Source: Bacteroidaceae bacterium
Lineage (GTDB): Bacteria; Bacteroidota; Bacteroidia; Bacteroidales; Bacteroidaceae
NCBI GenBank assembly: GCA_045657945.1
Contig: JAZOUB010000041.1
Location: forward strand, 43,987 to 107,986
Reading direction: 5' to 3'
Length of the DNA stretch: 64,000 bases
Of this stretch, positions 5,001 to 39,718 are shown one piece after another; position 1 is the first letter of the stretch, and each line of letters starts with the position of its first letter. The notes below the pieces were generated by a model. It made no database searches. It was given only the letters and a program-made list of their open reading frames with translations, and had not been told where the DNA came from. The position numbers and the translations under genes are program-made.

Positions 5001-8000
5001 TGCGCACACCAATCATCATAACCTTGACCTGTCCTAGCGACGGGCTACCTACAATGCTTATTCTGTTCTTGGGAGTCTCGCTGTCATACTCGCTGTATAT
5101 GGTGGTATTGGTCACACCCTCGGCATTGCTGTTGCGCAGTGTGTTGCGTCGTGTCTTTATTTCAGTCAATCTGTCGAGCGGAATGTCTATCATATTCTCC
5201 TGTGGCCATACAACGGCTGCAGCAACCGAACTGTTGCCATCGTATGAACCGTGTGGGGTTACAGTAAGCGGAACCTCATATTCATAGTAGTTGCTCTTGT
5301 AGTCCGAACCGAACCTTACGAACAGTGACATGTCATTGTTCTTGAGCTGTGTGGCATCAATCTCTGGCGCTTCGGCATGGATGAACAACTGTATGCGCTC
5401 ATACTGGCGTATATCAAGGTTGCTCTTCTTGTAAACAGCACGGCTCTCCTTGCTGCCAAGGTTGTTTATGTTCAGCGCGAGTGCCTGCTCGTTGTCCTGG
5501 CGCAATTGTGGCTGGCTGGGATCAATTATTCGTGTCACTCCCGGAGGAAGCACGTAGTTCACGGGCTTGCGGTCTCCATGCTCCTCAATGCTCACGGCCG
5601 ATGTGGTGAACTCGCCCGAAACCGTTGGCGCTGTATTATTCTTGGATGCAATGGGTTGCAAGTAGGGGCGCCAGTCACCACGTACAAGTTTCATGGTTGC
5701 AAAGCGCAACGTGATGGGCTTCTGGAACTGTGTCATATACATGCGGATGAAGCGTATTGACGTGAAATCGCGTATAGAACCCACAGCCTTCTCATACTCG
5801 TCAATTGGAATACGGAACTTGTACCAGTTCACGCTCTCGCTGTTACCGTTACGCAACTTGGTAGTTACACTACGCTTGTCGGTGATGTAGTTACGGCCTA
5901 CCTGCATATCCTCGGGACGTAGTGAAATCTTGTACTGGAAGAAATTCTCATACTCGTCCATTGTGAAGTCCTGGTTCGCGTCCTCCACATCGGGGGTTGT
6001 TTTTGCCGCGCTGCTGTAGTCACTGTCCGAGTCGCTTGGCGAGTTACCCTCGCTATTGTTGAAGTATTTGTAGCGTTCAATGATGCCACGCTGCGCAGCA
6101 TCGTAGTCGCTACCACGGAAATAGTGATACTTGTCGCCGGCAGGGTCGGCGGCAATGCTGTCATATACCTCCTGGCGCACGCGGCCTCTGATAGCGTCAA
6201 GGTATGCCTTGTATGTCGGGTGCTCGGCCTCGTCGGCACTGCTGAGTCCGTTGAGTCCGGTATCCTGCTGGTCGCGACTCTCCGAGTTGTTGTCAAATGC
6301 ATATACAAGGCTGGTGTTTGTCGGTATGCGTCCCCAAACAGTCTCTTCATACTCATAGTTGTTACCATTGGCAGGCAAACCGTTCTCATAGAACTTCTTG
6401 CCGTCCTTGAGAATATCTTCCGACACCTCGCCCAGATTGAAGTAGAGGTCGCCGCCCATACCGCTTTGTTCATAGATGAAGGGGTCGAGCATCCAGAACT
6501 CAATGTACTGTATGTTTGCGCTCTCGAAGTCGGTGGTGGTGAGTTGACGTGTGATACCTCCCCAACGGTTTTCAGGGTCTTCAAACTTTCCTTCTCTATT
6601 GATGTTGGTGTCAAGATTGTAAGGACCTCGTTCATTGGGGTAGTATGTCACATTCAGCAGCGAGAGAGTCGATGACTCGCCGTATGTCGATTCCTTGTTG
6701 GGGTACAACTCGCGCTCATATACCTCGCGTACATAATGGTTCGATAGCTGTTCTACATCGCTCTTTATGTGTGCCGGTGTGAGTGACGAGCTACGGCGTG
6801 TGAAAAGCGGGTCAATGCTGTACCAGCTTATACGTGCACGGTTGTATCCTGTGCGTATGTCGTTGGTGAGGTTGCTGTACTGCATGCCGTATGGCAGTGA
6901 CGACAACATCCATTGCGACGGCGATGAGATGTCAATGCCGTTTTCTGTATTCTCAAAATCATCAATGTATGACGCCTCGCTCTGCACAGCCTTTGATGTA
7001 CCGGCTTCCAGTCTCGCAAATTCGGCCGAGAGGCTTATTGACGACGGCTCGGTGCAACTGATGAGCGGCAGGCGGTCAATCATGTTCGTGAGCCACTGGC
7101 TCTGCTTCTTCCATGAGAGGTTGAAACCCCACAGGAAGTTCTGCAATGGCTCAGAACCCATGTCAACCTTTGATGTCAGTGGCTTCTCGGATAGAGACAT
7201 GAGCGTACCGCCGAACTTGAAGTCGTTCGAGAAGTCATACTTCCAGTTCAATCCCAGCACGGTCTTTCGCTGCATGTTGAACATGGTGTTGCTCTCGAGC
7301 GACACCTGTACATTTGTTCCGGCATCAATGATATTCTGGTTCAGGATTGTCACCGTTCCCGATGCGTAGTCCACCTGATAGTCGCTGTTCTCAACGAGTG
7401 TCACGCCACCGGCGGTTACCACCACCGAACCACGTGGTATGTTCGTAGAACCGGTCTGGATGACATTGGCTGCCGTGCCGGTGTACTCTCCAATGAGGTA
7501 GAACTTGTCCTTCTCGGCAATCTGCTTTGCCACGGTCTTTGTCGAGTCATAGAGCTCATGGAATACATACTTGCCGGCAAGCGACGGGTTGTCGATCTTG
7601 CCTTCGAGGTAGCTGCCGAATGGCTCTACCGACGGGAAGAAGATTCGTCCCGATGCCGCGTCAACCGTGTATCCCTGTATGAAGTCAAACACACCGTTGG
7701 GGTTCTCCTTGCTGTTGTTGCTGTCGAGCCTGTCGAGCGCAAGCAACTGGAGCAGTGACTTGCCCTTGAGCTCAGCCTCGGGCAGGTATGTGATGTTTGT
7801 GCCCAGGCTGTCGCTTGCGTAATATACATCAAGCTTGAAACTGGTGCTTTGCAGGTTACGTGTGCCAAGTGCATAGACATTCTTCATCATCAAGTCCCAG
7901 CAACCGTTATTCGGTGAGCATGCGTTCGGTTTGATGAGCTTTACGTAGAGCGTAGCCTTCGACTCCTTTACATCGCTCGAGAACTCACCGACCTGATAAG

Positions 8001-9450
8001 TCTGTCCGCCGTATGTATATTCGTATGCAACGGCAAGTACCTCATCGGCACGTAGCGGTGTCTTCAATGAGATAAAACCCAGTTCGCTGTTTAGGGTATA
8101 TTCCGATGATGAGAGCAGTCTCGCGTTCGAGAGCTTCTCATAGTCGCGTCCGCCGTTTATGCCGTCAATATTGTTCAGGATGTTGTTGGCCTGATCAATG
8201 TCGCGTACCCCGGCGTATGTAGTGCTCATCTGCGCATACAGGTTGTTGGCGTTGTTGTGCGGTATTGCGGTACTGCCGTTTGCGTTCCACGCAGAGTTGC
8301 TTATGTGGTGGCTCTCGGCAATGTCGGTAAAGGCAACAATATTACGTGGGTTGTTGTAGTCGCTTGTCTTGTTTGTGACCCAAACCTCAATGCGGTTGAT
8401 GTTTATGCCCGACAGGATTGTGGGCAACTGTGACATCGAACGGTCATAGTTGTCGCGGAAGTAGTGCGCGAGGAAGAAGTGCTTGTTCTCGTCGTAATTG
8501 GTAATCTCAATCTCGAATGTGGTGAGCTGTGTTCCGCCCTTTGAGTTAACGACAGTGCTGTTCGATGTCTTTTGCGAGACAACCGTCTGCAACAGAAGCT
8601 TTCCGAACTGCAGGTCGGCTCTCACACCGAACAGTGACGATGCGCCCTTGATGAGGCTCGAGTTTGTGGGGAACGATACATTTCCGGCTTCAAGCAGTTT
8701 GACAATCTCATCCTCCTTGCCGTCATATTTCAGGTTTATTTTCTTTGCGTCGTAGCTGAATGTGGCCTCGGTGTTGTAGTTGAAATCCATGTTCATCTTG
8801 TCGCCGACGCTTCCCCTTACATTTAGGTTGATTTTTTCGTCAAAATCGAAACTGTTTGTCCTGCGGCTACGTGACGGCAAAGCAGGGTTGTCTATGCTCT
8901 GTATCGAGTAGCCTATCTTCAGTTCAGCATTACCCTGTGTCTTCACGCGCACACCACCGGGACCGAATATCTTCTCGGCAGGTCCAAGGTCAAAGTGCAT
9001 GTCGGTAAAGTCGAACTTGTTCTTGCTCCTTGAACTCTCCCACAATTCAAAATTCTTCTTGCGGAAGAACCTGCTCATTGAGTTTCTCTCCTGCCACTTC
9101 GCATACTCTTCGGGTGTGAGCAGAATGGGCGCAGTAAGTGGCGAACCTTGACCAAGACGAGTACTCAATCGGTATGTTCCATCTACATCGTTGTAAGTAG
9201 TGTCCGTTACAATATTCGACGGGGTCTTCAGGTTAAAGGTCTTTGGCTCAATGTCATCAATGCTTTGTGGAACAGTCTCGGCAATGGGGTAGCGTGCCTC
9301 AATGGTATCCAGTGTAACCTCCCTGTTTGCCTGTGCCCTGTTTCTTCCCTTGATGGACTTGCGTATTGAGTCATTGCGCACGACACCCTGCGCGAGAATT
9401 GTCATTGTCGCGAAAAGCAGGGTGAGTAATACTGATGTGCGCTTGCTCAT
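2068..9450 (-). CDS. sprA: T9SS translocon / gliding-motility protein SprA (Sov), 2460 aa
   Basis: Single uninterrupted 7.4-kb ORF with a signal peptide. It is a giant beta-rich protein with SprA-type stretches (LLEAGNVSFP, FDFDEKINLNVRGSVGDK). Its size is typical of Bacteroidota SprA. Confidence 0.88.
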   Translation of the reverse strand: MSKRTSVLLTLLFATMTILAQGVVRNDSIRKSIKGRNRAQANREVTLDTIEARYPIAETVPQSIDDIEPKTFNLKTPSNIVTDTTYNDVDGTYRLSTRLGQGSPLTAPILLTPEEYAKWQERNSMSRFFRKKNFELWESSRSKNKFDFTDMHFDLGPAEKIFGPGGVRVKTQGNAELKIGYSIQSIDNPALPSRSRRTNSFDFDEKINLNVRGSVGDKMNMDFNYNTEATFSYDAKKINLKYDGKEDEIVKLLEAGNVSFPTNSSLIKGASSLFGVRADLQFGKLLLQTVVSQKTSNSTVVNSKGGTQLTTFEIEITNYDENKHFFLAHYFRDNYDRSMSQLPTILSGININRIEVWVTNKTSDYNNPRNIVAFTDIAESHHISNSAWNANGSTAIPHNNANNLYAQMSTTYAGVRDIDQANNILNNIDGINGGRDYEKLSNARLLSSSEYTLNSELGFISLKTPLRADEVLAVAYEYTYGGQTYQVGEFSSDVKESKATLYVKLIKPNACSPNNGCWDLMMKNVYALGTRNLQSTSFKLDVYYASDSLGTNITYLPEAELKGKSLLQLLALDRLDSNNSKENPNGVFDFIQGYTVDAASGRIFFPSVEPFGSYLEGKIDNPSLAGKYVFHELYDSTKTVAKQIAEKDKFYLIGEYTGTAANVIQTGSTNIPRGSVVVTAGGVTLVENSDYQVDYASGTVTILNQNIIDAGTNVQVSLESNTMFNMQRKTVLGLNWKYDFSNDFKFGGTLMSLSEKPLTSKVDMGSEPLQNFLWGFNLSWKKQSQWLTNMIDRLPLISCTEPSSISLSAEFARLEAGTSKAVQSEASYIDDFENTENGIDISSPSQWMLSSLPYGMQYSNLTNDIRTGYNRARISWYSIDPLFTRRSSSLTPAHIKSDVEQLSNHYVREVYERELYPNKESTYGESSTLSLLNVTYYPNERGPYNLDTNINREGKFEDPENRWGGITRQLTTTDFESANIQYIEFWMLDPFIYEQSGMGGDLYFNLGEVSEDILKDGKKFYENGLPANGNNYEYEETVWGRIPTNTSLVYAFDNNSESRDQQDTGLNGLSSADEAEHPTYKAYLDAIRGRVRQEVYDSIAADPAGDKYHYFRGSDYDAAQRGIIERYKYFNNSEGNSPSDSDSDYSSAAKTTPDVEDANQDFTMDEYENFFQYKISLRPEDMQVGRNYITDKRSVTTKLRNGNSESVNWYKFRIPIDEYEKAVGSIRDFTSIRFIRMYMTQFQKPITLRFATMKLVRGDWRPYLQPIASKNNTAPTVSGEFTTSAVSIEEHGDRKPVNYVLPPGVTRIIDPSQPQLRQDNEQALALNINNLGSKESRAVYKKSNLDIRQYERIQLFIHAEAPEIDATQLKNNDMSLFVRFGSDYKSNYYEYEVPLTVTPHGSYDGNSSVAAAVVWPQENMIDIPLDRLTEIKTRRNTLRNSNAEGVTNTTIYSEYDSETPKNRISIVGSPSLGQVKVMMIGVRNNSSSSKSAIIWVNEMRLIGFNNKSGWAAQGNLNIKLSDLGSFAAQGKVETAGFGGLEEKLAARRTDDYYRYSLTGTVDFGRFLPRSFKVTVPTYYSFTEEITSPLYSPFDTDLELDDVLDSYDDIGRDSLRNMAEVRSVMRNFSISNAKINISSKTPMPYDPSNLSFSFSHSATDNTGSTISWENRVNWKASLSYNYSSPIKTIKPFGKLKSKSKWLKMVKEWGVNPLPQSLALNTDMTRTYHELQRRDLQAMQDNNEIPLTFSQQFYWNRSMAIKWDPTTNLRMSLNTGTNAEVEEPFVPVNKERYPNEYAAWKDSVKHSLQSFGNPLAYQQSFNASYTLPLNKLPIFEWLTADGSYAATYNWQRGNSIAGVNVGNNIANKRNITLKASMNFEKLYNLVPYLEETNKRFASNKKNQKSKKSAKPKVEKPKAFTKEVKLKSDTTTTITHNLKNKKIEVLARTKNGETYKLKYRVLDENKILIKNKDTLGIKVTITAKPKNTERSNFAKAMQYPIRMLMMVRNASVNYTNAYAMNLPGFLPSAGDVFGQNRVDGFYAPGLDFAFGLIDDSYLAKAQRQSWLLRSDSIASMATSTAAEDLQARMTLEPFRDFKIDLNASWTRNQSKSIQFMYDGMPTNESGGFNMTTITIGTSFGGGSASNNYQSDVYDKFVGNLENRRAGLEGKYMGSEYPVSSSLAGKKYDPANGGVDKYSADVMIPAFLDAYTGIGGNDIFPSMLSILPNWKIKYSGLSKLPFFEKYFKSVNIEHGYKSVYAVGAYSTYATYMEYSRGIGFVNNTTTGLPIPSSRYNIGAVSINESFSPLIGVDVTTNNNLTIGAKFIKSRMINLSLTAIQMVETQNQEIAFNLGYKILNVKLFGGGNKASKSKQKNSGNDINIRADFSFKNQSSICRSIDKGTTQATSGNKSFNYSMTADYAYSKMLTFSLYFDGQKTIPLISTSSYPTTTIDFGVSMKFSLTR

Positions 9451-17912: not shown

Positions 17913-19331
17913 ATGCGTACTTGGCTCAGAAACATATCATTCGGTTCTCTGGCACTTGTTGTGGCTGTGCTCATAGCCGCAACCCTTTATGAAAAATTCC
18001 ACGGTACAAATTCTGTCCTTGAAAACATATATCACTCCCACTGGTTTGTAGCCCTGTGGGCTGTTGTTGTGCAGACGGGTACACTTTATATATTCATCTC
18101 CCGTATGAAACGTCTTAGTGCAGCATTCGTGTTGCACATGGCATTTGTAGTGGTGTTGGCAGGAGCTATGACAACTTTTACAACTGCCGAACGTGGAACG
18201 CTTTGCGTTTCGCAAGACGCTCCTCCGGCATCAATGTATGAAACCGCAAAGGGTGAACTGAAAAAACTCCCGTTCAGGATAAATCTATATGATTTTACAA
18301 TAGAGCACCACTCCGATGGTTCCCCGGTAGGGTATAACGCACAGCTTTGCTTGCAGTCACGTGGTGGAGATGTGGAGAATGTAAAAATCTCCATGAATAA
18401 TCCTGCCTCGTACAAAGGATACAGCCTGTATATCATGGGGCATATAGAAGATGTCGTTACCCTGCTTGTCTCTTATGACCCTTGGGGCTTGCCAATTACA
18501 TACACTGGATACGCCTTGTTGTTGGTTGGTGTCTTGTTCATGTTTCTTGACCCCAAGGGAGGCTTCCGTCGCAACCTTGCCTCATTGCACAAAACCCTTT
18601 CAGCCTCAAGCAACAGTAAAGCCGGAACATTCATGCGTCGGCTCCGTCTGTTCTTTGCCTTGTTACTCTTTATGGCAATTACATACATGGGCGTGTGCCG
18701 TTGGGTCGAGACCGGTTATTTCCCTGCATCCAATGGATATGAGACAATCCTCTTGCTCGCATGGTGTGCCCTGTTGGCAGGTGTGCTCCTGCGCCGCCAT
18801 TTCTCATCGGCGTTGTCCTACTCCCTTGTGCTTGCTCTTGTTGCAATCGCAGTCGTTCTCTTGAGCGGCGGTTCATCTTCGGGTGCAGTCATGCCCGTGT
18901 TGCGCACTCCATTGCTTGGAGTTCATGTTGCTCAGGTCATTGTTGCATATATGCTGCTTGCCGCAATGGCGGTGAATGCCGTTGTTGCGTTGTGGTACAG
19001 ATACCGCCATGCTAACATAGCAAAAATGGAGCAACTGGCACACGTCGGGAGGGTGGTGCTCTATCCGGCAGTGATGCTGCTCATAACAGGCATATTCACC
19101 GGTGCCGTGTGGGCAAACCTGTCATGGGGACGTTATTGGGGTTGGGATCCAAAAGAGGTGTGGGCCTTGGTAACAATGCTCATAGCAGCCGTGGCATTCC
19201 ACACCCGTTCGTTGCCATTTATCTCAAAACCACTTCCATTTCATCTCTTTTGCATTGTAGCGTTTGTGGCAATGCTTTTTACCTATTTTGGCGTCAACTA
19301 TTTGCTTGGCGGTTTACACAGTTATAATTAA
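17913..19331 (+). CDS. ccsA: Cytochrome c biogenesis protein, CcsA/ResC-type with N-terminal extension (CcsBA-like)
   Basis: WWD heme-handling motif WANLSWGRYWGWDPKEVWAL in a polytopic membrane protein of 472 aa. Confidence 0.7.
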   Translation: MRTWLRNISFGSLALVVAVLIAATLYEKFHGTNSVLENIYHSHWFVALWAVVVQTGTLYIFISRMKRLSAAFVLHMAFVVVLAGAMTTFTTAERGTLCVSQDAPPASMYETAKGELKKLPFRINLYDFTIEHHSDGSPVGYNAQLCLQSRGGDVENVKISMNNPASYKGYSLYIMGHIEDVVTLLVSYDPWGLPITYTGYALLLVGVLFMFLDPKGGFRRNLASLHKTLSASSNSKAGTFMRRLRLFFALLLFMAITYMGVCRWVETGYFPASNGYETILLLAWCALLAGVLLRRHFSSALSYSLVLALVAIAVVLLSGGSSSGAVMPVLRTPLLGVHVAQVIVAYMLLAAMAVNAVVALWYRYRHANIAKMEQLAHVGRVVLYPAVMLLITGIFTGAVWANLSWGRYWGWDPKEVWALVTMLIAAVAFHTRSLPFISKPLPFHLFCIVAFVAMLFTYFGVNYLLGGLHSYN

Positions 19332-19334: not shown

Positions 19335-19378
19335 CAACGACAAGAGGATGACTTAATTAAGTCATCCTCTTGTCGTTG
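19335..19378. terminator. Bidirectional terminator (20-bp perfect stem)
   Basis: CAACGACAAGAGGATGACTT-AATT-AAGTCATCCTCTTGTCGTTG, lying between the ccsA-like stop and small ORF 1. Confidence 0.7.
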
Positions 19379-19427: not shown

Positions 19428-19613
19428 TTACATGTTGCCCCAAATGTTATCCCAGTCACCGCGGTGTCCGCCCGAGAGTTGGTCGCTTCCGTCGGGGTTT
19501 GCATAATCTTCACCTCCACCACCATCAATCCAAAGATCGCCACTTGACCCGTCTAGTATTGGAGATGTCTTGACTTCAATAAATTCGATTGTAGGTTTTG
19601 TATATCGTTTCAT
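19428..19613 (-). CDS. Small W(G/D)N(L/I)W-tail peptide, copy 1 (61 aa)
   Basis: MKRYTKPTIEFIEVKTSPILDGSSGDLWIDGGGGEDYANPDGSDQLSGGHRGDWDNIWGNM. An internal ATG of the track ORF was chosen because it aligns with the two paralogs (33669..33833 and 47040..47204). No signal peptide and no Cys. Confidence 0.5.
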   Translation of the reverse strand: MKRYTKPTIEFIEVKTSPILDGSSGDLWIDGGGGEDYANPDGSDQLSGGHRGDWDNIWGNM

Positions 19614-19668
19614 AGTAGTGATATTTTCTTTTATCTGCAAGGACAGTTTCCTGTCCTTGCTGTGTTAT

Positions 19669-22600
19669 TTATTTTACGAATATCTTTTTGCCATTGACAA
19701 TGTAGAAGCCAGGTTCGGTAATCTCGTTGAGCTTGCGGCCCTGGAGGTCATAGATTGTATCCTCAACCTCTCTCTCAATCTCCTCAATCTCGGTAGTTCC
19801 GTCATCGAATACAAAGCGGAAACCTGTACCCTGCTGCAACAGCTGTGCAAAGTTACCCTCAACAGGCAAGTATGCCTTGTGACTGTTGTTGGTGAATGTC
19901 GCTGTTGCTCCACCTGTTATGTATGAGTTGTTAGAGAGTGGATACATACCAACTCCATTACTTTTTTTAGTAAGGATGTAAGCATCCTTGTTTACATAAC
20001 TCTTTGCAACTGTTCCCTCAAGAATGTTTCCAACCGCTTCGGCTCTTGCCGCGTCTGTATTCTCAGTGATGATGAAATCGTATATCTTCGCCTCGTCACT
20101 CCTTAGGATTACACCTGTGTTTGCAGGGATAATACCGTTCTGCAACATTGTCATTGTAACCCATGAATCGGCTGTAATATTCTTCTCTTTGAGAACATAT
20201 GCTCTAACACCCTCGGGGATTTCAACTGCAACAGGCGCGTAGAATGTAGCGTGCAATGCCGAACCAATGGTTACAGGAAGTGACTCAACCTCCTCAAGAA
20301 CAAAGTTGTGGTTTGTTGCATGGTTATCGGGGTTGCCACTACAGTGGTCAACATAGCGTGTTGTGCCATCTACTGCGTGCAAGTAGCTTGGTGCAGCAAT
20401 GGTTGTTGTCTCTCCGCTGGTTGTTATTGTAACAGTGCCGCTTGTTCCAACAGCCTGCAGACCGCGTGTTCCGCCATCCTCTTTTATGTATGTACCCTTG
20501 TCGTATGAGAGCAACTTGTTGTCGGCATAGTAGAAGATAGATGCGGCGCCAGTCTCTTTTGTCATAAGCAATGCGTTAGCCTTATTGGTTACACCGCTTG
20601 CCTCGCTCTGGATGTAGTACCTGTTGGCAGGAGTTTCTGGAGTTTCACCGCTGCCTTCACCTTCGTCACCTTCACTATTGCCTGTTTCTATCATGGTCAA
20701 AGCTGTTACATATATATATCGGCCTATAATTCCAGATAGTTTGAATGAAGTTTCCCCTTCTATAAATGTGATTGTTTGTACACTCGTACCTCCATTCAGT
20801 GAAACATTTTCTGAATTGTAAGAAACGGTCATGTCATATGTTCTGTAGCCGTTCTTATAACTCATCTCTGTTAGGGTGTAACCTTCGGGAACAGTAATTG
20901 TATATTCAACAGGTGTTGTAACTCCGTCAATGAGGTGCAATTGGAAACCATTATTGTATTTCATTGATGCAATTTCAGTTCCATTAGCATCTCTTGCAAT
21001 AATATTAACTCCGTTATCACTAGTCCATTGCGAATAAGTGGTCTTATCTCCCGTTTGTCCACCGAATGCTCCAGTTGTCAAATCTATTGTCACCACATCT
21101 CCAGCCGCTCTTGCAGCGCCTGCGCTGGCTGCAGCTGCGAAACCGTCATATCCAATGCGGTAGTAAACACCGGCTGTGGCATTCTCAACAGGGAGGAAGT
21201 TTGCAACATACTCGGCATCCTCCATATTCTCCACATTTGCAATGCCGGGGATAGTGTATGGGTTCTCGCTGCTGACAACATCTGTACCCTTTGTCCAGTT
21301 TACAAAGTAATAACCGGTATTTGCGGTTGCTGTGATGGTTGCCTCCATATTATGGCCCACCTTAATGGTTGTTCCTGATGAAGTGTCTGATTCTGCAGTT
21401 ACTGTACCATAGCTGTCATCATTTGCACGAACGGTGAGGTTGTATGATGCAGGCTCAAAGGTGGCTGTGTAAGTTACATCCTTCTCAATGGTGATGACAA
21501 GATTTTGCTCATTGCCCACAATGTTGTCATTCTCATCTTTCCAAATTGTTTCGTAGCCATAGCTTAACCAAGTGTTTATCATAACCTCGGTTCCTTCTTT
21601 CACAACGGCTCTGTTACTTGCATCATAGCCCAATGATGTTCCATCGGGGAGTGTGATTTTAGTGACATATCCAATTCTATTGCTTTTGGGTTCACCTATT
21701 ACAACACAACCACGGAAGAAGCGTGCCTGGTATGTTGCGGCCTCTGTTGCCTGAACAGTTATTGCAAGCTCTTTGCTCACAAGTACATCGTTCTTGTACC
21801 AACCGTCGAACAGGTAGGCCTTCTGGTCGTAGTCGGATGATGCAACAAGTTCAACATCGGCACCTACAACGAAATCGGCATCAGTTGCCCACGCCTGTCC
21901 AATGTTGTTGATGATAGCCTTTACATTACCATCTACAGCGTTAGTTACAGTTGTGCCGTCGGTCGATGCAACTGTGATGTGTATTGCAACTGTGCCTGTT
22001 GGAACCTCATTGAAACGTGCAGTGTAGTTGATGTGGCTTGTGACGGTGAATGTATAACTTGCCTCAGCGCTTATTAAATTCTCTCCATCGTACCAACCTG
22101 CAAAACTGTAGCCAGTACTTGGTGTGGCTGTGAGTGTCACCTCGCTGCCATGTTCAACATTTGTTGCGCTTGCGGTTGCGCTACCGCCCTCGCCGGCTGT
22201 TACATTGATGTTGTATATGTTGATTGCAAAGTTCACATTAATGTTTGTCACCCAATTTTTTGATCCACTTGTGCTTGTGGTGTATTCAGCATTTTCGCTA
22301 AGTACAGTACTGGTAGAATCGGACCAGTTTACAAAGTGGTAACCTACGGCAGGTGTAGCTACAAGAGGAAGTTGATATCCAATAGGAGCTTTTTTCTTTG
22401 TAACATTCTCCTCGCCATTGATGCTTGTTGTTCCGCCTTCAGTTGGTTTAATGTTCAATTTGATAGCCGGCCATCTCCAGGCTTCTTCCAATATGGCAGC
22501 GTATGCATTGATAGTGTTGTATGTCAGGCCACCCCATTTTTCGAAATCACCCAAGTTCTCAACTATTGGAACCAGCGCGTCTGTAATGATACATTTGCCT

Positions 22601-25600
22601 TCTCCTACACCTGCATAGTAATAGTACATTGCATATGTATCATTGAGCATGACTTCATAGTAGGGTGATTCAACAAACTCAAACCAAGCACCCTGGTGAC
22701 CATTGCTGTTGTAGTGTGTAGCGTAGTTGTAACCGGTTGCCGATGTGGAACAAAGATAACCCTTTTCTTCGCCCACGTTTGCTGTAAGAGAATACTGTGC
22801 ATCGGTATAATAATCATTTCCTGCAGGTTTCTTCTCGATTGTGAACACTGTTGCATCTATGGCATTCTCTACATATACCACATTCTGAGCATCACCATTG
22901 GCAACACTTGTTACCTGAATGTATTTACCTGTAAGCTCGTTCTTGAAGATGAACTCAAAGCTGTTGTTTACGTTGTAGATAGCCCAAGCAATCTTTGGAT
23001 TACCTCCCATGGTGTTGTATGTAGGGTGGTCGCCATAAGCGTAAGAGCCTGTAACCTTTGGTACATAAGTGTCATCAGCACTTGAAGCCGACAGATATAC
23101 CGGGTAATCGTTGTTTTTTGTATTTGATGGCCAGTAGATATTATGCCATATCTCATTCTGAGCATTACTTACTTTGAATGGTAATATGACATTGTTGGTA
23201 TATGTATAAGAATTGCCATTAATCTGGAGCTTACCATTGTCAATAACTTCATCTTCACTTTTTTCACCTAATGCTATATAAGGATACAGCTCAACCAACT
23301 TGGCAGCAACAGTTTCTTTTGTTATACCGTTGGTGAAGCCGTCCAACCGAATGCGATATTCATTGGTTTGGCCTGCATTGGTACCGATAATCTCAGTCAA
23401 GACAACATCTACAACTATCTGCTCAAAGTTCGCCTCAAGGCTCAATGCCTCGCTCACAGTTACGGTGTATGGGTTTTGGTCACTTACAACATTGCTGTTT
23501 CTTGCTTCGGCTGTTCTTGCAGCTGCGCTTGCCTGTGCAGCAGGTCTTGTCCAGTTGACAAAACGGTAACCGGGGTTGGCTGTTGCAAGAATTGAAACCG
23601 TTGCGTTAGCAGGTACAAACTTGTTGTTAACAGTCTCGGCAGCACTGCCATTTACTGTAATTGACACACTACCGGGAACAGTTTCTGTTTCCTCATCATT
23701 TACAGTCAACACAACCTCGCGGTAGCTCTCCTTAACGTTCTGCACAGTCTCGGTGTGTGTGTTAAGGGTGTTGAGAGGCGTATTCGCAATATTTTCTATA
23801 ATAGCCTTGATTGCATTGATGTCGTTATTGTCGGTGTAATTGCCATCACCGGCACCAAACTTGGCAACATTTTCTGTCAAAGCATCAATAATAGCCTGAT
23901 AGTCGGGAGCCTCAACGAACTCAATCCAAGCACCTTGGTGACCATATCCGTTATTACTATTGTTGAAATAGTGTGTTGCGTAATTGTAGCCTGTTGCCGA
24001 TGTTGAGCAGAGATAACCTGTTGTCTCGCCAACCTTTGCAGCAAGTGCATACTGTGCTGGAGTATAATAATCATTTCCTGCAGGCTTGTTGAAAATTGTG
24101 AACGCTGTTGCCTCCTCAATATTTTCAACATAAACTACATTTTGAGCACCATCATCGGCAACATTTGTTACCTGAATATACTTTTGGGTAACCTTGTTCT
24201 TGAAGATGAACTCAAAACCGTTGTTTACATTGTAGATAGCCCAACTGATTTTTTCATTACCATCCAATGTATTATATGTCGGGTGGTTACCATAAGCGTA
24301 TGAGTCTGTTACCTTTGGTACATATGTGTCATCTTTACTTGAAGCCGACAGATATACCGGGTAATCGTTCTCTCTAGTGTTTGCCGGCCAGTATATGTTG
24401 TGCCATACAGTTGTGTTGGCATTACTTACCTTGAATGGCAATGTCACAGTGTTGGTGTATGTGTTGTCTGCAATAGCACCGTTCTCGCCCAATGTAATGA
24501 ATGGGTATGTTGTTGTCAGGTAAGTTGCTACAGCAGCTGCATCGTTGGGAACGTAGTCGAGTGTCTCTCGGTAGATGTTGCCCTCTGTATCGGTAAGCTC
24601 AATGTTGAACTCAACAGGTACATATTCAACATCTGCATTCGGGTTAAGGAAATTGTTGTTTGTAATCTCCTCAATTGTCAAAGGAACATATACCATTGAG
24701 TAACCATAGGTGTTGTCGTCGTTATGACAAGGAGCCTCCTCAAAGAAGAATGCTATCTCGCCATTCTCCTGCAGTGCCATTGCGCTGTATGCGCTCTGCA
24801 CTGTGCTCACCTGCAAGCCCTTTGTCCAACCGCCTGCAATTGAAGACGGAGTCTGTGTCTCGTTGCCAATCTCCTTGTACCAGATGGTTACATCCTTGCG
24901 GTCCCAAGTGCTTGAACCACCCTGTGGCTGTGACTGCAACAGAATTTTTGTAGGCTTGCCGTTGGTTTGCTTTGCGTCAAGGCAGATTATTTCACCGTTT
25001 GTGCCGTTTTTGCCTTCATTGCTGCAACCGCTGACAGCAGTGCCCCAAGTGCCTTCGCCGGCAGCCTTGTCGTTGCCGTATGTGAAGACATTGAACACAC
25101 GGCTACCACCGCTTGCGTGGCGTGAACTGAGCAGAACCTGTCCGTTTGGCAGAATCTCAACCTTTGGCTCGTCAGCTTCGGCTATATGTGTTTTGCTGCC
25201 ACCGAGGATATTCCAGGTTGCACCCCAGTCATCCGAGAACAGAACATAGTTGTTTGTGCTGCGTGCGCTGTTCTTTAAAAGGATTGCACCATAGACACGT
25301 GCCTTGCCTGTGCCGTTGAAGTCGGGGTCAACAGCCAATTTACCGCTGCCGAAGAATGTTGCGTATGCCTCGTCGAAGAGACCAAAGATATTGCTTGTAA
25401 CCTCCTCTTTTGTCCAAGATTGACCATTGTTGTTGCTGTAGATACGGTAGGTCTTATTTTTGTTTGTTGCATTGGCATTGGGGTAGAATACATTGCCGGC
25501 AACAGCCATAACAAGGATGTCCTGTCCGTTGGCTACAATAGCTGCATCGCCGTAACCGAATGTCGATGTACCCTCGGCTATAGTCTGCTTTGCAGTCCAA

Positions 25601-28600
25601 GTTGCACCGTTGTCGTCGCTTGTACGCATAACAAGGTCAACTCTGTTTGTTCCTGTGCCGTGGTTGTCGCGGCCAATATCATCGTGGCTGTGACGGTAGT
25701 CGCTCACTGCAACAAGGCGGTTTGTGCCGGTCTTTGCAATGGCAGGGATGCGGTATGAGAATTCATCATCATCGTAGAAGAGTGTCACATCATTGGTTGC
25801 TGTGAACTTTGCAACAAGCGGAGTAGTCTCGTTGATTGCTGCAACATTGTCAGCTGTGAGTGTCGGGTTTGTTCCAAGTGATGTCGCGCCAATGTAGAAA
25901 CCGTTGAACTCAAAGCCACGATACTTGCGTGTGAATGCAAGTGTTGTACCCTCGGCGAGTGGCATTGTAAGCTCGCTTGCTGTTTGGTGAGCTGGAGTGA
26001 GCTTCATTGCTGTTCCGCCAATGGTTATTGTACCCAAGTGAGTATTTGGATTATCGTTTCTCCAGTTCTCAACCTCGGCCTGGAACATTGCCGGCACAAA
26101 CTCCTCTTCAATGTATGTGATTTCAAGAGCTGTGATGAAGATACCATTTCCTGCAGTTCCACCTACACCAATGTTAATGGTATTGGTTTCAAGTCCTGTT
26201 GCAGAAATAGTTTTTTCTGTAGTACCACTTATTGCAATAGTACCGGTATTGTTGTTTGTAGCGGTATATGTAACATCACCAGAGAATGAATCACCTTCTC
26301 CCCTGATAGTCATACTATATCCTGCAATTTTATATGGTTCAGGGATAGAAATTGTAAAATTAGTTGCTTTAGCCAAATATGGAGTTTTATTACCATTAAC
26401 CTTGGTAGTCCAACCAAGATTGTTGTTAGTAATTCCATCCACTTTGATTGTTACAGTTGGAGTTGTGTTTACAACTGCTTTGTAACCCCAACCGCTGTTT
26501 ATTGTATTACCGGCATAGTTTGTATATGTAACATCTGCAAATGTAAGATTCAATGTCTTCTCGTTAGAAGGGATAACCTCCTCGAGAACCCAGGTAGAAG
26601 CTGCGTTTGAAGCTGCATCACAATATACATATCCGTTCTCTGCCTTGAAGTAATCGTCGCGCTCAACACCGTTATTCATGTTCGTGTTGTCCCACTTGAT
26701 GAGGTACTCAAGTTCGTTACCTGTTGTCTCAAAGGTGAGTACTGTGGCATCGTTTGCGCTGGTGGTGTTTGCATTGGCATTCCAAGCGTGGCACTTGATG
26801 TAGTTGCCGCTGTTTGCTTTCAGTTTATAGCCATCGCCGCTCTGCTCAAAGAGGAATATCTGTGTGTCGCTGCTTTCGTTCTTGGCAACAACAGTTACAC
26901 CACTTGTTGAACCTGTATTGTTGCTTGTATTTGCAATGTTCATATAGTTGGTGGTGTTCTTTACCTTCAAACGGAAGAACTTGCCTGCAAGAGATGTTGT
27001 TGGTTCTGTCGGCGTATTTGACTCAAAATTTGCAACATAGTTTGAAGCCTGTGCCACGCTTACATTGCAAGTTGCTTCGGTGCTAACCACATTTCCGCCC
27101 AATGTCCAGTTTACAAAGTTGTAACCGGTGTTGGCGGTAGCATAAAGTGTTATCTGAGTTCCGTTTTCAACATCGCCCTGTGTCTTTTGGCTACCAGTGC
27201 CAACTGCGAACTTTGCTGTACCACCCGCTGCAGGGTTTGCAGTCGTTGTAACGGCGTAGGTTGTTGGGGTTGGGTCAGGCTCCGGCTCCGGCTCTGGGTC
27301 GGGAGTTGGGGTAGAGGCTCCGCCTTCTGACTGGATGGTTACTGTAACTCCATCTTCCAAAATTGCCAAGCCGGCACGACCGGCATAAGTTGAACCCAAT
27401 ACAAACGAAGTGCTTTGTGAATTGATGTCTGATGCAGAAAACACAACGCCTGCAGCAGCATTATTTACATTTGTTGTATTTCCTCCAATTGTAACATCAA
27501 TTGTGTAAGAACTACTGGGGCTTTTACCCTTAAAACTGTAACTTTTTATTATATAACCTGCAGGTGCAGTCAATGTATAAGTTATATCCGAAACAAGTGT
27601 CTCAGAGTTTCCTACAGGCGCTTTTGCGAAGAATGTATTGACGGTTGTTGAAAGGGCATAAGCCGGCTCAGAGCCTTTCGAACAGTTCAATACAATACCG
27701 TCGCTTGTTGTCCAAGTGCTGCAATAAGATCCATTAGCTCCACTTATCTCTACACTCGAAATGTTAAATGTGCAATCTTTCTCAACCAGCACATTTGCCT
27801 CATCGTCAAAGTTTGCAACATAGTCATTGTCGGATGCACCTACTTTTACCTGTAGTGTGTTCTTTGTGCCGACTATGACACCGTTCTTTGTCCAATTTGC
27901 AAGTGCATAACCGTCGGCAGGGTGTGCGGTGAGGGTTGCGGTGAAGTTCTCATTAATTTCTGCGCTTGCAGTTGTTCCGGCAGTTCCACCATTGATTGAA
28001 ACAGTACCCATATTTGAAGGTGTAGCTGTTGCAGTAACGGTGAATTTTTCTGTTTTTGGCGCAAGGTTAAAGAGTGCGTAATGTTCTGCACCATCTATCC
28101 AAGAATAATTGTCGCCTTGAGAAGGAGTGATAGCGTCAAGTTTGAACCAACCATTACCCGAGCCGTTCCATCCGAAGTTGAAATGAAAGTAATTATTGGC
28201 TGTGTAACCATCAAGGACAAACATATGGCGTGTATCACCTGTACCACTATTATCTGACGCGTATGGTATTGGGCAACCGTTGTCAATGCTCTCCTTGATT
28301 TTTTCAATCCACTGCTCCATAGTAAAGTTTGCCTGGTATGAGGCATTGATGAGCTGGTAATTGAAATAGTCATTCAGAACCTTGCTGTCCGATCCTTCGT
28401 TTACAGTTGTTGCACCGGTGCCTATACTTGAAGGGAAACAGGCGTGCAGTATGTGTGAGAAGAACTTTGAAACCTCGTCAATCTGCTCCTGTGTCCAGTC
28501 ACTGTTGTATGTAAGAGGCATCTTGCTGAAATCATATACTCTGTCGGTTATCTCTACATATGTAGGTGCCTGACAGTTGTACAGGGTCTTGGCTGTTCCT

Positions 28601-33956: not shown

Positions 33957-35717
33957 TTACTTTACAAGTGTTTTTTTGCCATTTACAATGTAGATACCGG
34001 GAGCAGTGATAGCCTCTACACGGCGGCCTGTGAGGTCGTAAACAGTTTTCACATTTCCGTTTTCCGTTTTCACCTCTTCAACGCCTGTTGTACCCTCGCC
34101 AAAGCGGAAGCTGAAGTTTGCTGCACCCTGTGCTGCTGCAGGAACTGCGCTTACAGGCAAGTATGCCTTGTTGGCATTGTTAAGGAAAACTTTTACTGAA
34201 CCAGATGCTTGACTTAGTGCTATAGTGGTCATCTGTGCCTTGTAGAGGCCGGTTTCGCCTTCAACAACACCAAGTATGTAAGCCTGACCAATGATGTTGG
34301 TGTTGATTACTGTACCCTTGAAAAGGTTGCCGGTTACGGCTGCTGCATTTGTCTCTGATACACTGAAAGTGTACTCACCCTCTGCGCCCTCAAGGATAAC
34401 GGCTGTGTTTGCAGGGATTACATTCTCAATCTGTGTCAATGTTACTTTCTCACCATTGAAACTTCCTTCGGTAATGTAGTATGCCTTTACATTCTCGGGG
34501 ATTTCAACCTCAGCAGGTGCATAGAATGTAGCATAGCCGACACCGCTGATATTAGCCTTGAATGAAGCAACTTCTGCAACCTCATATACATAGTGGATAG
34601 TCCAACCGCCGGTTCCGGTGTTATAAACAGGAGTGCCGTTTGAACCATTCTGGACGTTAATCCAGTTGCTGCCTTTTACAAAGCGTACAAGGTTGGCGTC
34701 GTTGCTGCCTGTGATGTAAAGGTTTGAGTCGCCGTCGCCGTTGAATGTACCGTCAACGCCGGGAGCTGTTGCTGTAAATACTGCAGCATTGTCAATTGTT
34801 CCAAAATCCTTTGGTGATGATGTCTGCATGTATGTGCCGTCCAATTTCTTCAAATAGTATGAACCGGCTTGACCTGCGTTCACAGGCTCCCAAACAAAAA
34901 TTGCATCATTTGTGAACTCCTCCTCGCTGTAAGGTACTGCGCCAGTGTTGCCCACAAACCAACGGTTATTTGTGTAAGAGAGGTTTTTGATTGCAATGTA
35001 TGTGGGCTCGGTTTTTGCCATCAAATCACTTGCTGTAACCTGTGTGAGGTATGAAACTTCTGCGGGTTCTTCAGGGAGCTCGGGAGTTGCAACCTCAGTG
35101 TCAATAGTCACCTTGAACAATCCATAGAAGCAACCATAGGCTGTGTAGTTGTTGACAATGTTGATTTTGAGTGTTACGGTTCCGTCAGCAGCCTTGATAG
35201 GGGTACTTGGAACAAAATTTACTGTTACACTTTCACCTCCATTAGAGTTCACCTTGATTGCGACCTCGTTATGTTGAGCTACTGTGGCGTCATCCTGCTT
35301 TAGAATGAAATCAATATGCTGTGCGTTTGCATTGTCGCCCTGAAATGCACCACCGCCATTCAAAGCAACGCTCTTGAGTGTTATGGCCGTGAATTCGTAG
35401 TTGTCGGGAACACCTGCAATGGTAAGTGTTATTACGCCCGCCGCATCACCGGTCATGTCCTTTGTGTTCTTGTCTGGGCAAAGGATGCTTGAATTTGGAA
35501 ATGTTGCGCTATTTGCTCCAAATGCTTTCCAGTTGTAGTTGCAAGCGATAGTTGAGGTGATGCCTGTTGCATCAACATCGCCAGTGCCTGTCACTGTAAC
35601 ATTTGCGTCAGTGCCTGCCGCACTGTTGTTTCTTGAGAATGTCAAGTCAATTGCATTCTGCGCCATTGTTGCTCCACAGAAGAGCGCAAGCGCCATAGAT
35701 AGTAAAATTTTCTTCAT
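33957..35717 (-). CDS. T9SS cargo protein, adhesin/lectin-like (586 aa)
   Basis: Signal peptide MKKILLSMALALFCGATMAQ. CTD is VYDLTGRRVEAITAPGIYIVNGKKTLVK. The roughly 200 aa before the CTD are homologous to the same region of the giant protein. Confidence 0.8.
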   Translation of the reverse strand: MKKILLSMALALFCGATMAQNAIDLTFSRNNSAAGTDANVTVTGTGDVDATGITSTIACNYNWKAFGANSATFPNSSILCPDKNTKDMTGDAAGVITLTIAGVPDNYEFTAITLKSVALNGGGAFQGDNANAQHIDFILKQDDATVAQHNEVAIKVNSNGGESVTVNFVPSTPIKAADGTVTLKINIVNNYTAYGCFYGLFKVTIDTEVATPELPEEPAEVSYLTQVTASDLMAKTEPTYIAIKNLSYTNNRWFVGNTGAVPYSEEEFTNDAIFVWEPVNAGQAGSYYLKKLDGTYMQTSSPKDFGTIDNAAVFTATAPGVDGTFNGDGDSNLYITGSNDANLVRFVKGSNWINVQNGSNGTPVYNTGTGGWTIHYVYEVAEVASFKANISGVGYATFYAPAEVEIPENVKAYYITEGSFNGEKVTLTQIENVIPANTAVILEGAEGEYTFSVSETNAAAVTGNLFKGTVINTNIIGQAYILGVVEGETGLYKAQMTTIALSQASGSVKVFLNNANKAYLPVSAVPAAAQGAANFSFRFGEGTTGVEEVKTENGNVKTVYDLTGRRVEAITAPGIYIVNGKKTLVK

Positions 35718-35756
35718 ATAATTAAATTTTGCGTTAATGAATACTTTTTAATAACG

Positions 35757-35790
35757 CAAATGTAACTATAAAGAAAGAATTCACCCCCCC
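35757..35790 (-). promoter_or_regulatory. Putative promoter: -7 box TACATTTG, 19-nt spacer, G7 tract
   Basis: The plus strand reads CAAATGTA(35757-35764)-19 nt-C7(35784-35790). The ATG is at 35717. It shares the GCAAATGTAACT core with 15125-15136. Confidence 0.5.
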
Positions 35791-35811
35791 ATTTAGTTAA
35801 ATAATGTTAAA

Positions 35812-36212: not shown

Positions 36213-36252
36213 TGTCGTTTTTATTTCATAACAATGGTTTTGCGTTTTTGTT

Positions 36253-37146: not shown

Positions 37147-37183
37147 GGTTGTTGATTTATGCTCCCCTCCGGTCTTCGACCAC

Positions 37184-39708: not shown

Positions 39709-39718
39709 TGACAGGTCT

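Follow-up and report, generated by a model that had tools for sequence, protein, structure and literature searches.

Small, predicted disordered proteins encoded behind large secreted proteins in gut Bacteroidaceae

A short open reading frame (ORF) encoding 61 amino acids lies directly behind the gene for a giant secreted protein in the genome of a Bacteroidaceae bacterium, and two similar frames occur within the same window (the whole stretch of 64,000 nucleotides that was analysed). The question raised by this locus is what so small a protein does, and what its position has to do with it. A sequence-only reading had noted a conserved N-terminal region, a variable core and a conserved Trp-rich tail, and had likened this layout to RiPP precursors or secreted signalling peptides, treating the link to the secreted-protein gene as incidental. 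Here we find that this link to the cargo gene is the strongest signal, and we propose, with a probability of roughly 40%, that the peptide is a small partner protein of large secreted proteins ending in an all-beta module and a shortened T9SS-type tail.

The window holds three members of the family:

19428..19613, minus strand: copy 1 small-protein gene, 61 aa, ATG start; 'WDNIWGNM' subfamily
33669..33833, minus strand: copy 2 small-protein gene, 54 aa; commonest subfamily
47040..47204, plus strand: copy 3 small-protein gene, 54 aa; an orphan with no cargo gene in front

The translation of copy 1 agrees letter for letter with that reported earlier, and the gene lies on the minus strand. The features said to unite the three copies are likewise present, namely an MK(K/R)xYxxP start and a W(G/D)N(L/I)W tail, with QLSGG(H/S)RG(D/T)W common to copies 1 and 2. 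The consensus of the copy 2 subfamily is MKKTYVSPLMVEVNVEAExMLAASLKMDxxKTVDTSNGGQLSGGSRGEWGNLWN. The absence of Cys and of a signal peptide, noted earlier for copy 1, is correct: by inspection, the N-terminal region is too acidic for a Sec signal peptide (Glu 29-49% at five positions in residues 9-18), and both a Sec and a lipoprotein signal peptide were rejected.

A profile HMM of the three copies matched 1042 proteins (clusters at 90% identity; best E-value 1e-24), and an exhaustive profile search gave 749 cluster representatives at 50% identity. In reference genomes, 51 related loci were found; the 28 genomes that carry them come from uncultured gut Bacteroidaceae/Bacteroidales, each with at most six peptide loci. 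Orthologs of copy 1 at 87-97% identity include P0002, P0013, P0038 and P0087, and P0014 is 98% identical to copy 3 over all 54 residues. The reading frame is under purifying selection, with a dN/dS of about 0.28 overall and 0.16 in the tail, and the tail Leu has different codons in two of the copies, CTC and TTG. A conserved RNA instead of a protein was rejected, as synonymous changes dominate and the only Rfam match in the window is a tmRNA that lies elsewhere. The ORFs are genuine protein-coding genes, and form a new, unnamed family of about 55 residues. Literature searches on WGNLW, the tail motifs and T9SS small proteins returned nothing relevant.

The layout of conserved N-terminus, variable core and conserved Trp tail holds across 117 diverse members. 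The N-terminal block consists of MKKxY-x-x-P, then an amphipathic beta-strand, then (M/I)(L/I)AxS, a segment which ends G-S in about 13% of members and A-S, T-S or S-S in the remainder. Among the 117 members Y5, P8 and W53 are 100% conserved, and conservation is also high at S24 (94%), W49 (96%), G50 (85%) and N51 (97%), with A22 at 82% (range for A22/S24, 82-94%). In the second block, R-G-x-W-G-N-L-W, each fixed position is 74-100% conserved, and W-G-N-L-W ends 0-5 codons before the stop. The linker joining the blocks varies in both sequence and length, while the blocks themselves are near-identical among paralogs of one genome. AlphaFold gave no fold for the peptide (pLDDT 57.6, pTM 0.15), and family members are predicted to be intrinsically disordered.

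Copy 1 begins 55 nt past the stop of a gene for a 3060-aa protein, and copy 2 begins 123 nt past a gene for a 586-aa protein, behind a REP-like hairpin pair. Both upstream genes end in the same way:

19669..20298, minus strand: module and CTD-like tail of the 3060-aa gene (whole gene 19669..28851), residues about 2852-3060
33957..34580, minus strand: module and CTD-like tail of the 586-aa gene (whole gene 33957..35717), residues about 380-586

These two regions (residues 2852-3060 and 380-586) are 41% identical. The remainder of the 3060-aa protein carries Peptidase_C10, BNR and InlB B-repeat domains, and in their N-terminal parts the cargo proteins show no mutual relationship. The conserved all-beta module comprises ~160 residues before the tail; in the AlphaFold model of the 586-aa protein it is predicted with a pLDDT >90, with a disordered linker and then a short beta tail after it. 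The module found no match in Pfam, NCBIfam, a PDB sequence search, or Foldseek with the confident AlphaFold model. The tail-bearing proteins all begin with a signal-peptide-like N-terminal sequence, and a SprA/Sov translocon gene is present in the window (2068..9450).

Copies 1 and 2 had each been placed behind a T9SS cargo gene and a hairpin. The position and the hairpins were confirmed, but the curated T9SS CTD profiles do not recognise the upstream tails: TIGR04183 and PF18962 had no match at E<=10 in the last 90 residues of the seven tail-bearing window proteins. In L002 a canonical CTD does match PF18962, and it is visibly longer than the window tails. A profile of the tails matched the RgpB (gingipain) CTD structures 5hfs, 7pq4 and 5ag8 weakly (E 0.06-0.18), the matches spanning the YDxxGRxV...GxY motifs. 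A canonical T9SS CTD is thus unconfirmed by TIGR04183 and PF18962 for these tails, the likeness found being the weak one to the RgpB CTD.

The arrangement recurs well beyond the window. When neighbouring genes were tabulated, 54 of 61 peptide genes lay directly downstream of a gene with a T9SS-like CTD tail on the same strand (median gap 153 nt), a synteny count that is ascertainment-biased because the related loci were chosen for containing the peptide. The module is also present in 48 of these 54 neighbours, at least three of the seven exceptions sit behind large proteins with a variant tail, and divergent family members show the same placement behind cargo. At L008 and L009 the copy 1 subfamily stands behind orthologous proteins of 3233 aa and 3203 aa. 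In the reverse test, for which the tail-only proteins of the same loci are an internal control, a peptide ORF came next in 55/61 module-bearing proteins versus 3/24 tail-only proteins (odds ratio 64, Fisher p = 1e-11). The same is seen in the window, where only the two module-bearing proteins among the seven with a tail have a peptide copy behind them.

Peptide and module also diverge together, peptide identity being correlated with module identity (Spearman 0.72; 0/2000 Mantel permutations reached 0.72). Such co-divergence might mean co-inheritance only. The pairing is kept while the sequence upstream of the module is exchanged, and the modules have diverged to 15-40% identity across lineages where peptide residues stay invariant. 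Both the synteny and the co-divergence are established in this analysis, as are the coding status of the peptide, its conservation pattern and its predicted disorder, and the synteny points to a partner role and not to a stand-alone antibiotic-type peptide.

On the preferred reading, in which the peptide is a partner of the cargo, every module-bearing cargo gene would have its own trailing small gene. This gene is probably the last cistron of the cargo mRNA, so that peptide and cargo would be produced side by side and at the same time; the strong hairpins at or just past the peptide stop codon fit the end of such a transcription unit. The Bacteroidetes -7 box (TAnnTTTG) was found in 0/59 upstream regions, which is a weak promoter test as the stand-alone copy 3 also has no such box. 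The N-terminal block and the R-G-x-W-G-N-L-W block may be two contact sites. An escort or adaptor would be the likeliest form, with one end binding the module and tail, the sole feature common to the upstream proteins, and the other binding a shared partner in the cell while the cargo is exported, processed or attached to the surface. It counts against this reading that the peptide has no signal peptide whereas the module is expected to be extracytoplasmic: contact would have to take place before or during Sec export, barring another export route for the peptide. Co-transcription, physical contact between peptide and module, and the stage at which the peptide acts are inferred here.

A narrower version of this proposal, which we regard as unlikely, is that the peptide is a cargo-specific accessory factor of an unrecognised type IX substrate subclass, defined by the all-beta module and shortened CTD. 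It would be produced one-for-one with its cargo from the same mRNA, and would either escort the module in export or be consumed in processing or attachment. We know of no secretion system that uses a leaderless, disordered 54-residue protein as an export accessory. The near-identity of the two blocks among paralogs suggests common partners and not pair-specific recognition; with common partners a single gene copy would seem enough, which counts against the cargo-partner reading, as does the failure of the curated T9SS CTD profiles to recognise the upstream tails. In addition, copy 3 sits between a PAP2 gene and nadA, and a divergent family copy at L044 (12646..12807) also adjoins nadA and PAP2. 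As these copies stand alone, at least one paralog works without a cis-linked cargo gene.

The peptide may alternatively be the precursor of a RiPP or pheromone, matured by an enzyme with its gene at another site in the genome, as happens with scattered prochlorosin precursors, a possibility we consider real if somewhat improbable. Residues 1-24 would then serve as a leader for an RRE-type domain, and R-G-x-W-G-N-L-W would be a core that is modified and then cleaved and exported. The modification could be a Trp cross-link, given the similarity of W-x-N to a three-residue cyclophane, or Trp prenylation as in ComX. Two-block conservation with a variable linker and predicted disorder, several copies per genome, and a tail that is the site of strongest purifying selection all fit such a precursor. 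Double-glycine leaders, which are exported by a C39-peptidase ABC transporter (PCAT), end in GG, GA or GS; the corresponding segment of the peptide ends in G-S in the minority of members given above. The leader pattern looks like a beta-strand and not a helix, and the N-terminus with its YxxP presumably resembles RRE-bound leaders; likewise, we take W-x-N to resemble triceptide or dynobactin-type motifs. The aromatic-x-(N/K/R) motif of rSAM cyclophane RiPPs is present as W49-G-N51, although a motif of three residues is by itself weak evidence. Overall, the two conserved blocks and the disorder match the look of a leader-plus-core substrate, a look that is not specific to RiPPs.

The gene neighbourhoods argue against a precursor. 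Neighbour proteins were clustered (538 proteins from 58 loci plus the window), and no maturase, RRE protein, protease or peptidase-ABC (C39-ABC) exporter was enriched within ±10 kb of the 58 loci. Only the cargo cluster recurs among the 538 neighbours, the next most frequent being another secreted protein at 7 loci. The window itself had been said to hold no maturase, protease or dedicated exporter, and this was upheld, with no such recurrent cluster there either; its only ABC exporter (10152..11822) has no C39 domain and is unlinked to the peptide genes. The neighbour proteins with a CxxxCxxC motif are HydE/HydG, NrdG and one 280-aa rSAM/SPASM protein. The gene for the latter lends the RiPP reading some support, lying convergent to and 217 bp from the peptide gene at L012 and 7.4 kb off at L037, but it is near the peptide in only 2/58 loci. 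Its product scores far under every NCBIfam cut-off, DynA included, and was rejected as a specific maturase because its own family, with at least 8000 clusters at 70-80% identity, is much wider than that of the peptide.

No precursor model matched either. Pfam and NCBIfam hmmscan searches with all three copies (E<=10) gave no relevant match, the curated precursor families considered including those of NCBIfam/TIGRFAM (e.g. GG-Bacteroidales TIGR04149) and Pfam (e.g. NVEALA). Lasso precursors are defined by a YxxPxL leader with Thr at -2 and by an acidic core residue (position 7-9), and their genes adjoin those for B (RRE/protease) and C (cyclase). A lasso peptide was rejected here: Ala (82%), not Thr, stands at -2 from S24, no acidic residue is conserved 7-9 positions past the putative cleavage site, and there are no B or C genes nearby. 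Furthermore, the peptide genes are never in tandem arrays, and a precursor role leaves unexplained the copy behind nearly every module-bearing cargo gene, a linkage that is unlike the expectation for scattered RiPP precursors. The proposal of a RiPP or signalling peptide is therefore not supported by the enzymes, exporters or precursor families looked for; what it draws on is architecture, and it is no longer the best explanation.

RNA structures surround the peptide genes, and these bear on whether the peptide acts while still on the ribosome:

19637..19660, minus strand: 10-bp GC-rich hairpin in the spacer from the 3060-aa gene's stop to the copy 1 ATG
19335..19378, minus strand: 20-bp terminator-like hairpin, 50 nt past the copy 1 stop
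33872..33944, strand not given: two REP-like GC-rich hairpins in the spacer from the 586-aa gene to copy 2; repeat I1
33637..33673, minus strand: perfect hairpin with 18-nt arms covering the last codon and stop codon of copy 2; repeat I2

The first of these hairpins has no T-run after it on the minus strand, and most related loci also have a hairpin between the upstream gene and the peptide gene. An alternative, longer start of copy 1 (TTG at 19640) falls inside it; the start consensus across the family is the ATG. The second hairpin is common to copy 1 and the next gene, a convergent cytochrome c assembly gene (17913..19331). Copy 3 is flanked on both sides by terminator-like hairpins (about 46971-46999 and 47217-47262). 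In related loci strong hairpins are found at or just past the peptide stop codon, and an equivalent of the copy 2 hairpin begins <=5 nt from the stop codon in 18/57 loci.

These structures would suit a regulatory nascent peptide, in which the C-terminal motif stalls the ribosome (as in TnaC and SecM) and so masks the stop-codon hairpin, tuning termination, read-through or stability of the cargo mRNA and possibly sensing tryptophan or secretion load. The invariance of W-G-N-L-W so close to the stop agrees with this, as does the copy 2 hairpin, which takes in the last sense codon, and a same-strand gene follows the peptide in about 60% of loci, often another cargo gene. However, the N-terminal block (Y5, P8, S24) is equally invariant about 45 residues from the stop, so that arrest alone is insufficient, and this N-terminus is not a secretion signal. 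The gene after the peptide is on the opposite strand in 19/51 loci and is otherwise unrelated between loci, the conserved neighbour being the upstream gene, whereas the monitoring peptides that are known precede the genes under their control. In the case of copy 1, 50 nt separate the stop from the hairpin, and a convergent gene comes next. We consider a nascent-peptide role very unlikely.

Repeats and decayed copies raise the further possibility that the ORF is hitch-hiking, either as part of a duplicating 3' cassette (module, tail and hairpins), or with an unrelated housekeeping role and a synteny that is historical. Copy 2 is followed by two truncated 3' remnants (QWGNLWQ*, 33411-33425; QWDNLWN*, 33292-33306), within the following feature:

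33258..33428, minus strand: two 119-bp tandem repeat units, each a last-seven-codon remnant with an identical 28-nt flank

These remnants were not mentioned in the sequence-only reading, and a similar one occurs at L042 (4780..4920). REP-like repeats and decayed 3' remnants around the genes show recombination and duplication, passive co-inheritance would likewise give co-divergence, and copy 3 is an orphan, all of which is compatible with hitch-hiking. Yet a functionless ORF would be expected to decay, as the two remnants have, whereas purifying selection has been sustained (dN/dS 0.28) and residues remain invariant despite modules at 15-40% identity. The pairing has also been kept though everything upstream of the module was exchanged. 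Hitch-hiking thus seems quite improbable to us, and the cargo-partner reading remains the one we prefer.

The near one-to-one rule between a C-terminal module and a trailing small gene holds for dozens of species of gut Bacteroidaceae and for sequence clusters in the hundreds. To our knowledge, T9SS substrates with type-A-like CTDs are thought to need no substrate-specific helper. Should the rule have a functional basis, it would point to a missing component in the export or display of very large enzymes for the breakdown of mucin and other glycans of the host. Were the peptide to prove a RiPP, its precursors, scattered behind genes for secreted proteins and sharing a conserved W-G-N-L-W core, would be unusual for that class. 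The pairing of peptide and module predicts which proteins to examine, and the proposal is therefore directly testable. For annotation, the family is at present called 'hypothetical protein' or left unnamed, and gene callers often miss it or extend its start wrongly; a profile HMM would annotate >1000 clusters. For copy 1, there is no source name among the names shown for the profile matches.

Compared with known systems, the peptide is similar to RiPP precursors (streptide/RaS-RiPPs, darobactin/dynobactin, triceptides and ComX) in its size (50-60 aa), disorder and several copies per genome, and in its succession of K-x-Y-x-x-P with a beta-strand segment, a variable spacer and an invariant Trp motif at the extreme C-terminus. 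Unlike these precursors, its genes are tied to secreted-protein genes, with no linked enzyme, RRE, protease or exporter in about 60 loci, and it matches no curated precursor family. With TnaC, SecM, MifM and VemP it shares a small ORF, an invariant Trp motif near the stop and RNA structure right after the stop, but it lies downstream of its associated gene, has an invariant, non-targeting N-terminus, and often has no regulatable gene downstream. A third comparison is with dedicated secretion accessories. PorP/SprF genes adjoin type-B-CTD T9SS cargo, and no small accessory factor for type-A-like T9SS cargo was found described in the literature searched. PorP/SprF proteins have signal peptides and form outer-membrane beta-barrels of about 300 aa, and the chaperones of the T3SS and T6SS, at 100-300 aa, are folded, whereas the peptide is a leaderless, disordered protein of 54 aa with two conserved blocks. 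Nevertheless, as with PorP/SprF, T3SS class I chaperones and T6SS effector adaptors, a small dedicated gene stands directly beside each substrate gene, is duplicated along with it, and diverges in parallel with the secretion-proximal region of that substrate.

The 61-residue ORF at 19428..19613, described in a sequence-only reading as one of three related small peptides, has exactly the translation given there and lies on the minus strand, and both of the further copies claimed are genuine. A six-frame motif scan found no additional intact copy in the window, and revealed two truncated peptide tails downstream of copy 2.

19428..19613, minus strand, copy 1, 61 residues
33669..33833, minus strand, copy 2
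47040..47204, plus strand, copy 3, stand-alone, adjoining nadA and a PAP2 gene
33411-33425, minus strand, remnant QWGNLWQ ending in a stop codon
33292-33306, minus strand, remnant QWDNLWN ending in a stop codon

Across the three-copy alignment identity to copy 1 is 32-42%, with 13 invariant columns including Y, P, L, S, GG and W-x-N-x-W. Each remnant corresponds to the peptide gene's final seven codons and follows a REP-like hairpin; the pair sit in two 119-bp tandem repeat units (33258..33428, minus strand) with an identical 28-nt 3' flank; they look like decayed duplicates of the gene. A comparable 3' remnant is present in another genome (peptide-bearing locus L042, 4780..4920).

The peptides have no Pfam or NCBIfam match, even at E<=10. 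A profile built from the three copies retrieved 1042 protein clusters (90% identity; lowest E-value 1e-24), whose members are mostly exactly 54 aa long and called 'hypothetical protein' where the source gives a name. At the 50% identity level, searching the representatives exhaustively with HMMER gave 749 clusters. A scan of a single genome for each species, with the tail motif as the sole query, turned up 51 loci; they are spread over 28 genomes, none with more than six, and the true range may be wider. The 28 carriers are without exception uncultured gut genomes, of ruminant or human origin, labelled 'Bacteroidaceae/Bacteroidales bacterium'. In a comparison of 20 distinct 54-aa genes, dN/dS came to 0.28 (codons 1-24, 0.42; middle, 0.22; tail, 0.16), and the tail Leu codon is CTC in one copy and TTG in another. 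The sequence-only reading was to be abandoned if homologs and purifying selection were lacking; both are clearly there, and the family is real, large and unnamed. That the gene is a passive hitch-hiker in a duplicating 3' cassette is improbable, being contradicted by this sustained purifying selection.

We gathered 58 related loci with flanks of up to 10 kb on either side. Where the upstream neighbour is visible, 54 of 61 peptide genes lie directly 3' of a large same-strand protein gene (the cargo), at gaps of 5-478 nt (median 153). These upstream proteins, of 272-3233 aa, share an end of ~45 residues (the tail), ..TTGIEEV..IYDLxGRxV..GIYIxNGKKVxVK, and in 48 of the 54 this tail is directly preceded by a conserved ~160-residue region, the module. 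In at least three of the seven exceptions the peptide follows a large protein with the variant tail ..GVNILQMSDGSVVKVMIK, and divergent members from the exhaustive search show the same gene order. In the reverse test, a module HMM applied to the same loci, a peptide-tail ORF followed within 900 nt of 55/61 module-bearing proteins, whereas only 3/24 tail-only proteins were so followed (odds ratio 64, Fisher p = 1e-11), in a synteny sample that carries ascertainment bias. Of the six unpaired module-bearing proteins, four instead have a peptide gene directly upstream of them.

The window itself encodes seven tail-bearing proteins.

15203..16174, minus strand, 323 aa
19669..28851, minus strand, 3060 aa, module-bearing
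29168..31213, minus strand, 681 aa
33957..35717, minus strand, 586 aa, module-bearing
41596..45450, minus strand, 1284 aa
54578..57370, minus strand, 930 aa
57521..61453, minus strand, 1310 aa

The module is present in just two of them, of 586 and 3060 aa (41% identity over 214 residues), and only these two have a peptide copy behind them. Over 58 pairs, peptide identity follows module identity (Spearman 0.72; none of 2000 Mantel permutations as high). The cargo proteins have mutually unrelated N-terminal parts, among them a C10 peptidase carrying BNR and InlB repeats, CHB_HEX/Fn3_assoc and regions without a known domain. Given this pairing and co-divergence alongside unrelated N-termini, the conserved evolutionary unit is module plus tail, hairpin and small gene.

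The module has no sequence match in Pfam, NCBIfam or PDB. AlphaFold models it as a confident all-beta domain (pLDDT >90 for ~150 residues), with a disordered linker leading from it to a short two-strand tail, and Foldseek found no significant PDB neighbour (best E 0.33). TIGR04183 and PF18962 do not detect the tail; a canonical CTD taken from a genome of the same kind is longer. A profile built from 24 tails matches the C-terminus of a rumen arabinanase (4kca) strongly (E 1.8e-9), and three RgpB CTD structures weakly (E 0.06-0.18, over YDxxGRxV...GxY motifs); the tail may be a shortened CTD class missed by curated profiles. SprA/Sov, the T9SS outer-membrane translocon, is encoded at 2068..9450 (minus strand; a 2460-aa ORF whose last 90 residues match TIGR04189, E 2e-21), which places secretion machinery beside a set of presumed substrates. 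The earlier label of T9SS cargo can therefore be reasonably inferred for the upstream proteins from the translocon and the weak RgpB likeness, against which stands the lack of a match to curated CTD profiles.

The 323-aa protein is a C10 peptidase that aligns with the N-terminal end of the 3060-aa giant (28000..28851, minus strand) at 61% identity across 273 residues; it looks like a stand-alone paralog of that protein's protease head, with a CTD-like tail of its own. Tail-bearing proteins in 29168..61453 are of host-glycan- or mucin-degrading types (two M60 peptidases, a GH20 hexosaminidase with MucBP, a BNR/sialidase-like region, C10 peptidases); together with a sulfatase also encoded there, they suggest a gut bacterium that forages on mucin. 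A full-length tmRNA gene lies at 16767..17164 (minus strand; Rfam RF00023, 124 bits), and the 177-aa ORF overlapping it (16324..16857) is probably spurious.

The cargo gene and hairpin noted before copies 1 and 2 recur across most related loci, where a GC-rich hairpin, often REP-like and usually without a T-run, separates the cargo stop from the peptide ATG and is followed by an A-rich leader. The Bacteroidetes TAnnTTTG box occurs in 0/59 upstream regions, a weak test, as the stand-alone copy 3 is also without it. A strong hairpin follows the peptide stop, starting within 5 nt of it in 18/57 loci; that of copy 2 takes in the last sense codon, and copy 1 has a 20-bp hairpin 50 nt downstream, directly before a convergent gene. 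The simplest reading of this layout is that the small gene would be the last cistron of the cargo transcript. Terminator-like hairpins bracket copy 3, suggesting that it is monocistronic. An arrest- or attenuation-type nascent peptide would suit the tail and the stop-codon hairpin, but leaves the invariant N-terminus unexplained and would be encoded behind, not in front of, its associated gene; we consider it very improbable.

Two families of GC-rich palindromic REP-like elements, GTAGGGGCGAACCGATGTGTTCGCCC and GGTCGCGGGCAGCGCAGAC..GTTGCGCCCCGCGGGT, surround peptide genes in many genomes (window 33460..33620 and 33872..33944; in many loci ~32 nt past the peptide stop codon). A conserved hairpin, GTCCTCCAAACTCTCCCC-TATG-GGGGAGACGGAGGGGGCC, pairing CCTCC with GGAGG, lies ~10-55 nt upstream of the ATG, ending ~10 nt before it, in 11 loci (L004, L014, L016, L017, L035, L038, L042, L044, L048, L053 and L058). 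None of the window copies has this hairpin, which could serve in processing, termination or translational control.

Among 117 diverse family members Y5, P8 and W53 are 100% conserved, followed by N51 (97%), W49 (96%), S24 (94%), L/I52 (92%), R46 and G50 (85%), A22 (82%) and G47 (81%). Residues 9-19 alternate between hydrophobic and acidic in a beta-strand-like manner, residues 25-45 vary in both sequence and length, and 0-5 residues follow W53. The peptide has neither Cys nor an uncharged hydrophobic stretch, which on inspection rules out a Sec or lipoprotein signal. AlphaFold predicted no fold from a 37-sequence alignment (pLDDT 57.6, pTM 0.15). Taken with the conservation pattern, this predicts two invariant patches joined by a disordered linker, as expected of a two-site-recognised substrate or adaptor.

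This architecture also fits a RiPP or pheromone precursor with its maturase elsewhere in the genome; the sequence-only reading had found the layout reminiscent of RiPP precursors or secreted signalling peptides. We take the N-terminus to be like RRE-bound leaders, W-x-N to be like cyclophane motifs, and the peptide to have some likeness to ComX, as leads only. When 538 neighbouring proteins were clustered, however, no modifying enzyme recurred: the sole recurrent family is the cargo (51 loci), and the next cluster (7 loci) is another secreted protein. The CxxxCxxC motif near the peptides belongs to HydE/HydG (synteny conserved in four loci), to NrdG and to a single 280-aa rSAM/SPASM protein.

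L012 (a locus in another genome), 2768..3622, minus strand, rSAM/SPASM gene, convergent, 217 bp from the peptide gene
L037 (likewise), 12211..13050, plus strand, rSAM/SPASM gene, 7.4 kb from the peptide gene

The two rSAM/SPASM proteins are 72% identical and fall below every NCBIfam cut-off. They cannot be called a maturase, as their family is far broader than the peptide's (at least 8000 clusters at 70-80% identity in Bacteroidales) and is near a peptide in only 2/58 loci. In L004, L005, L017 and L028 a module-cargo and peptide pair, plus a ~1550-aa tail-bearing protein, lies between hydE/hydG and hydF, [FeFe]-hydrogenase maturase genes. An ABC exporter lacking a C39 domain, a MATE pump and secreted peptidases are encoded in the window, which, as noted before, offers no maturase candidate. 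Since genomic context lends it nothing and the pairing is left unexplained, the precursor reading is possible but doubtful.

The best-supported explanation, to which we give a probability of about 0.4, is a small partner protein that has two conserved contact blocks and is functionally tied to the secreted proteins bearing the module. It would be synthesised alongside each cargo, keeping pace with it, one conserved end contacting the shared module or tail and the other a common cellular partner, and would act in export, processing or attachment. Against this partner role, no export signal is present in the peptide; the paralogs are near-identical at both conserved ends, suggesting common partners; copy 3 stands alone beside nadA, as does a divergent copy in another genome (L044, 12646..12807, also adjoining nadA and PAP2, with gene orientations rearranged); and the synteny sample is biased in its ascertainment.

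Neither the family nor its pairing rule has a counterpart among the curated families, solved structures or literature searched, and that the peptide is a new type of T9SS cargo-specific factor is a tentative proposal, less likely than not but with a substantial chance. Among known kinds the family comes nearest to RiPP precursors whose C-terminal cores are short and conserved, and to accessory genes adjacent to secretion-system substrates, such as PorP/SprF beside type-B-CTD cargo; it departs from both in defining respects.
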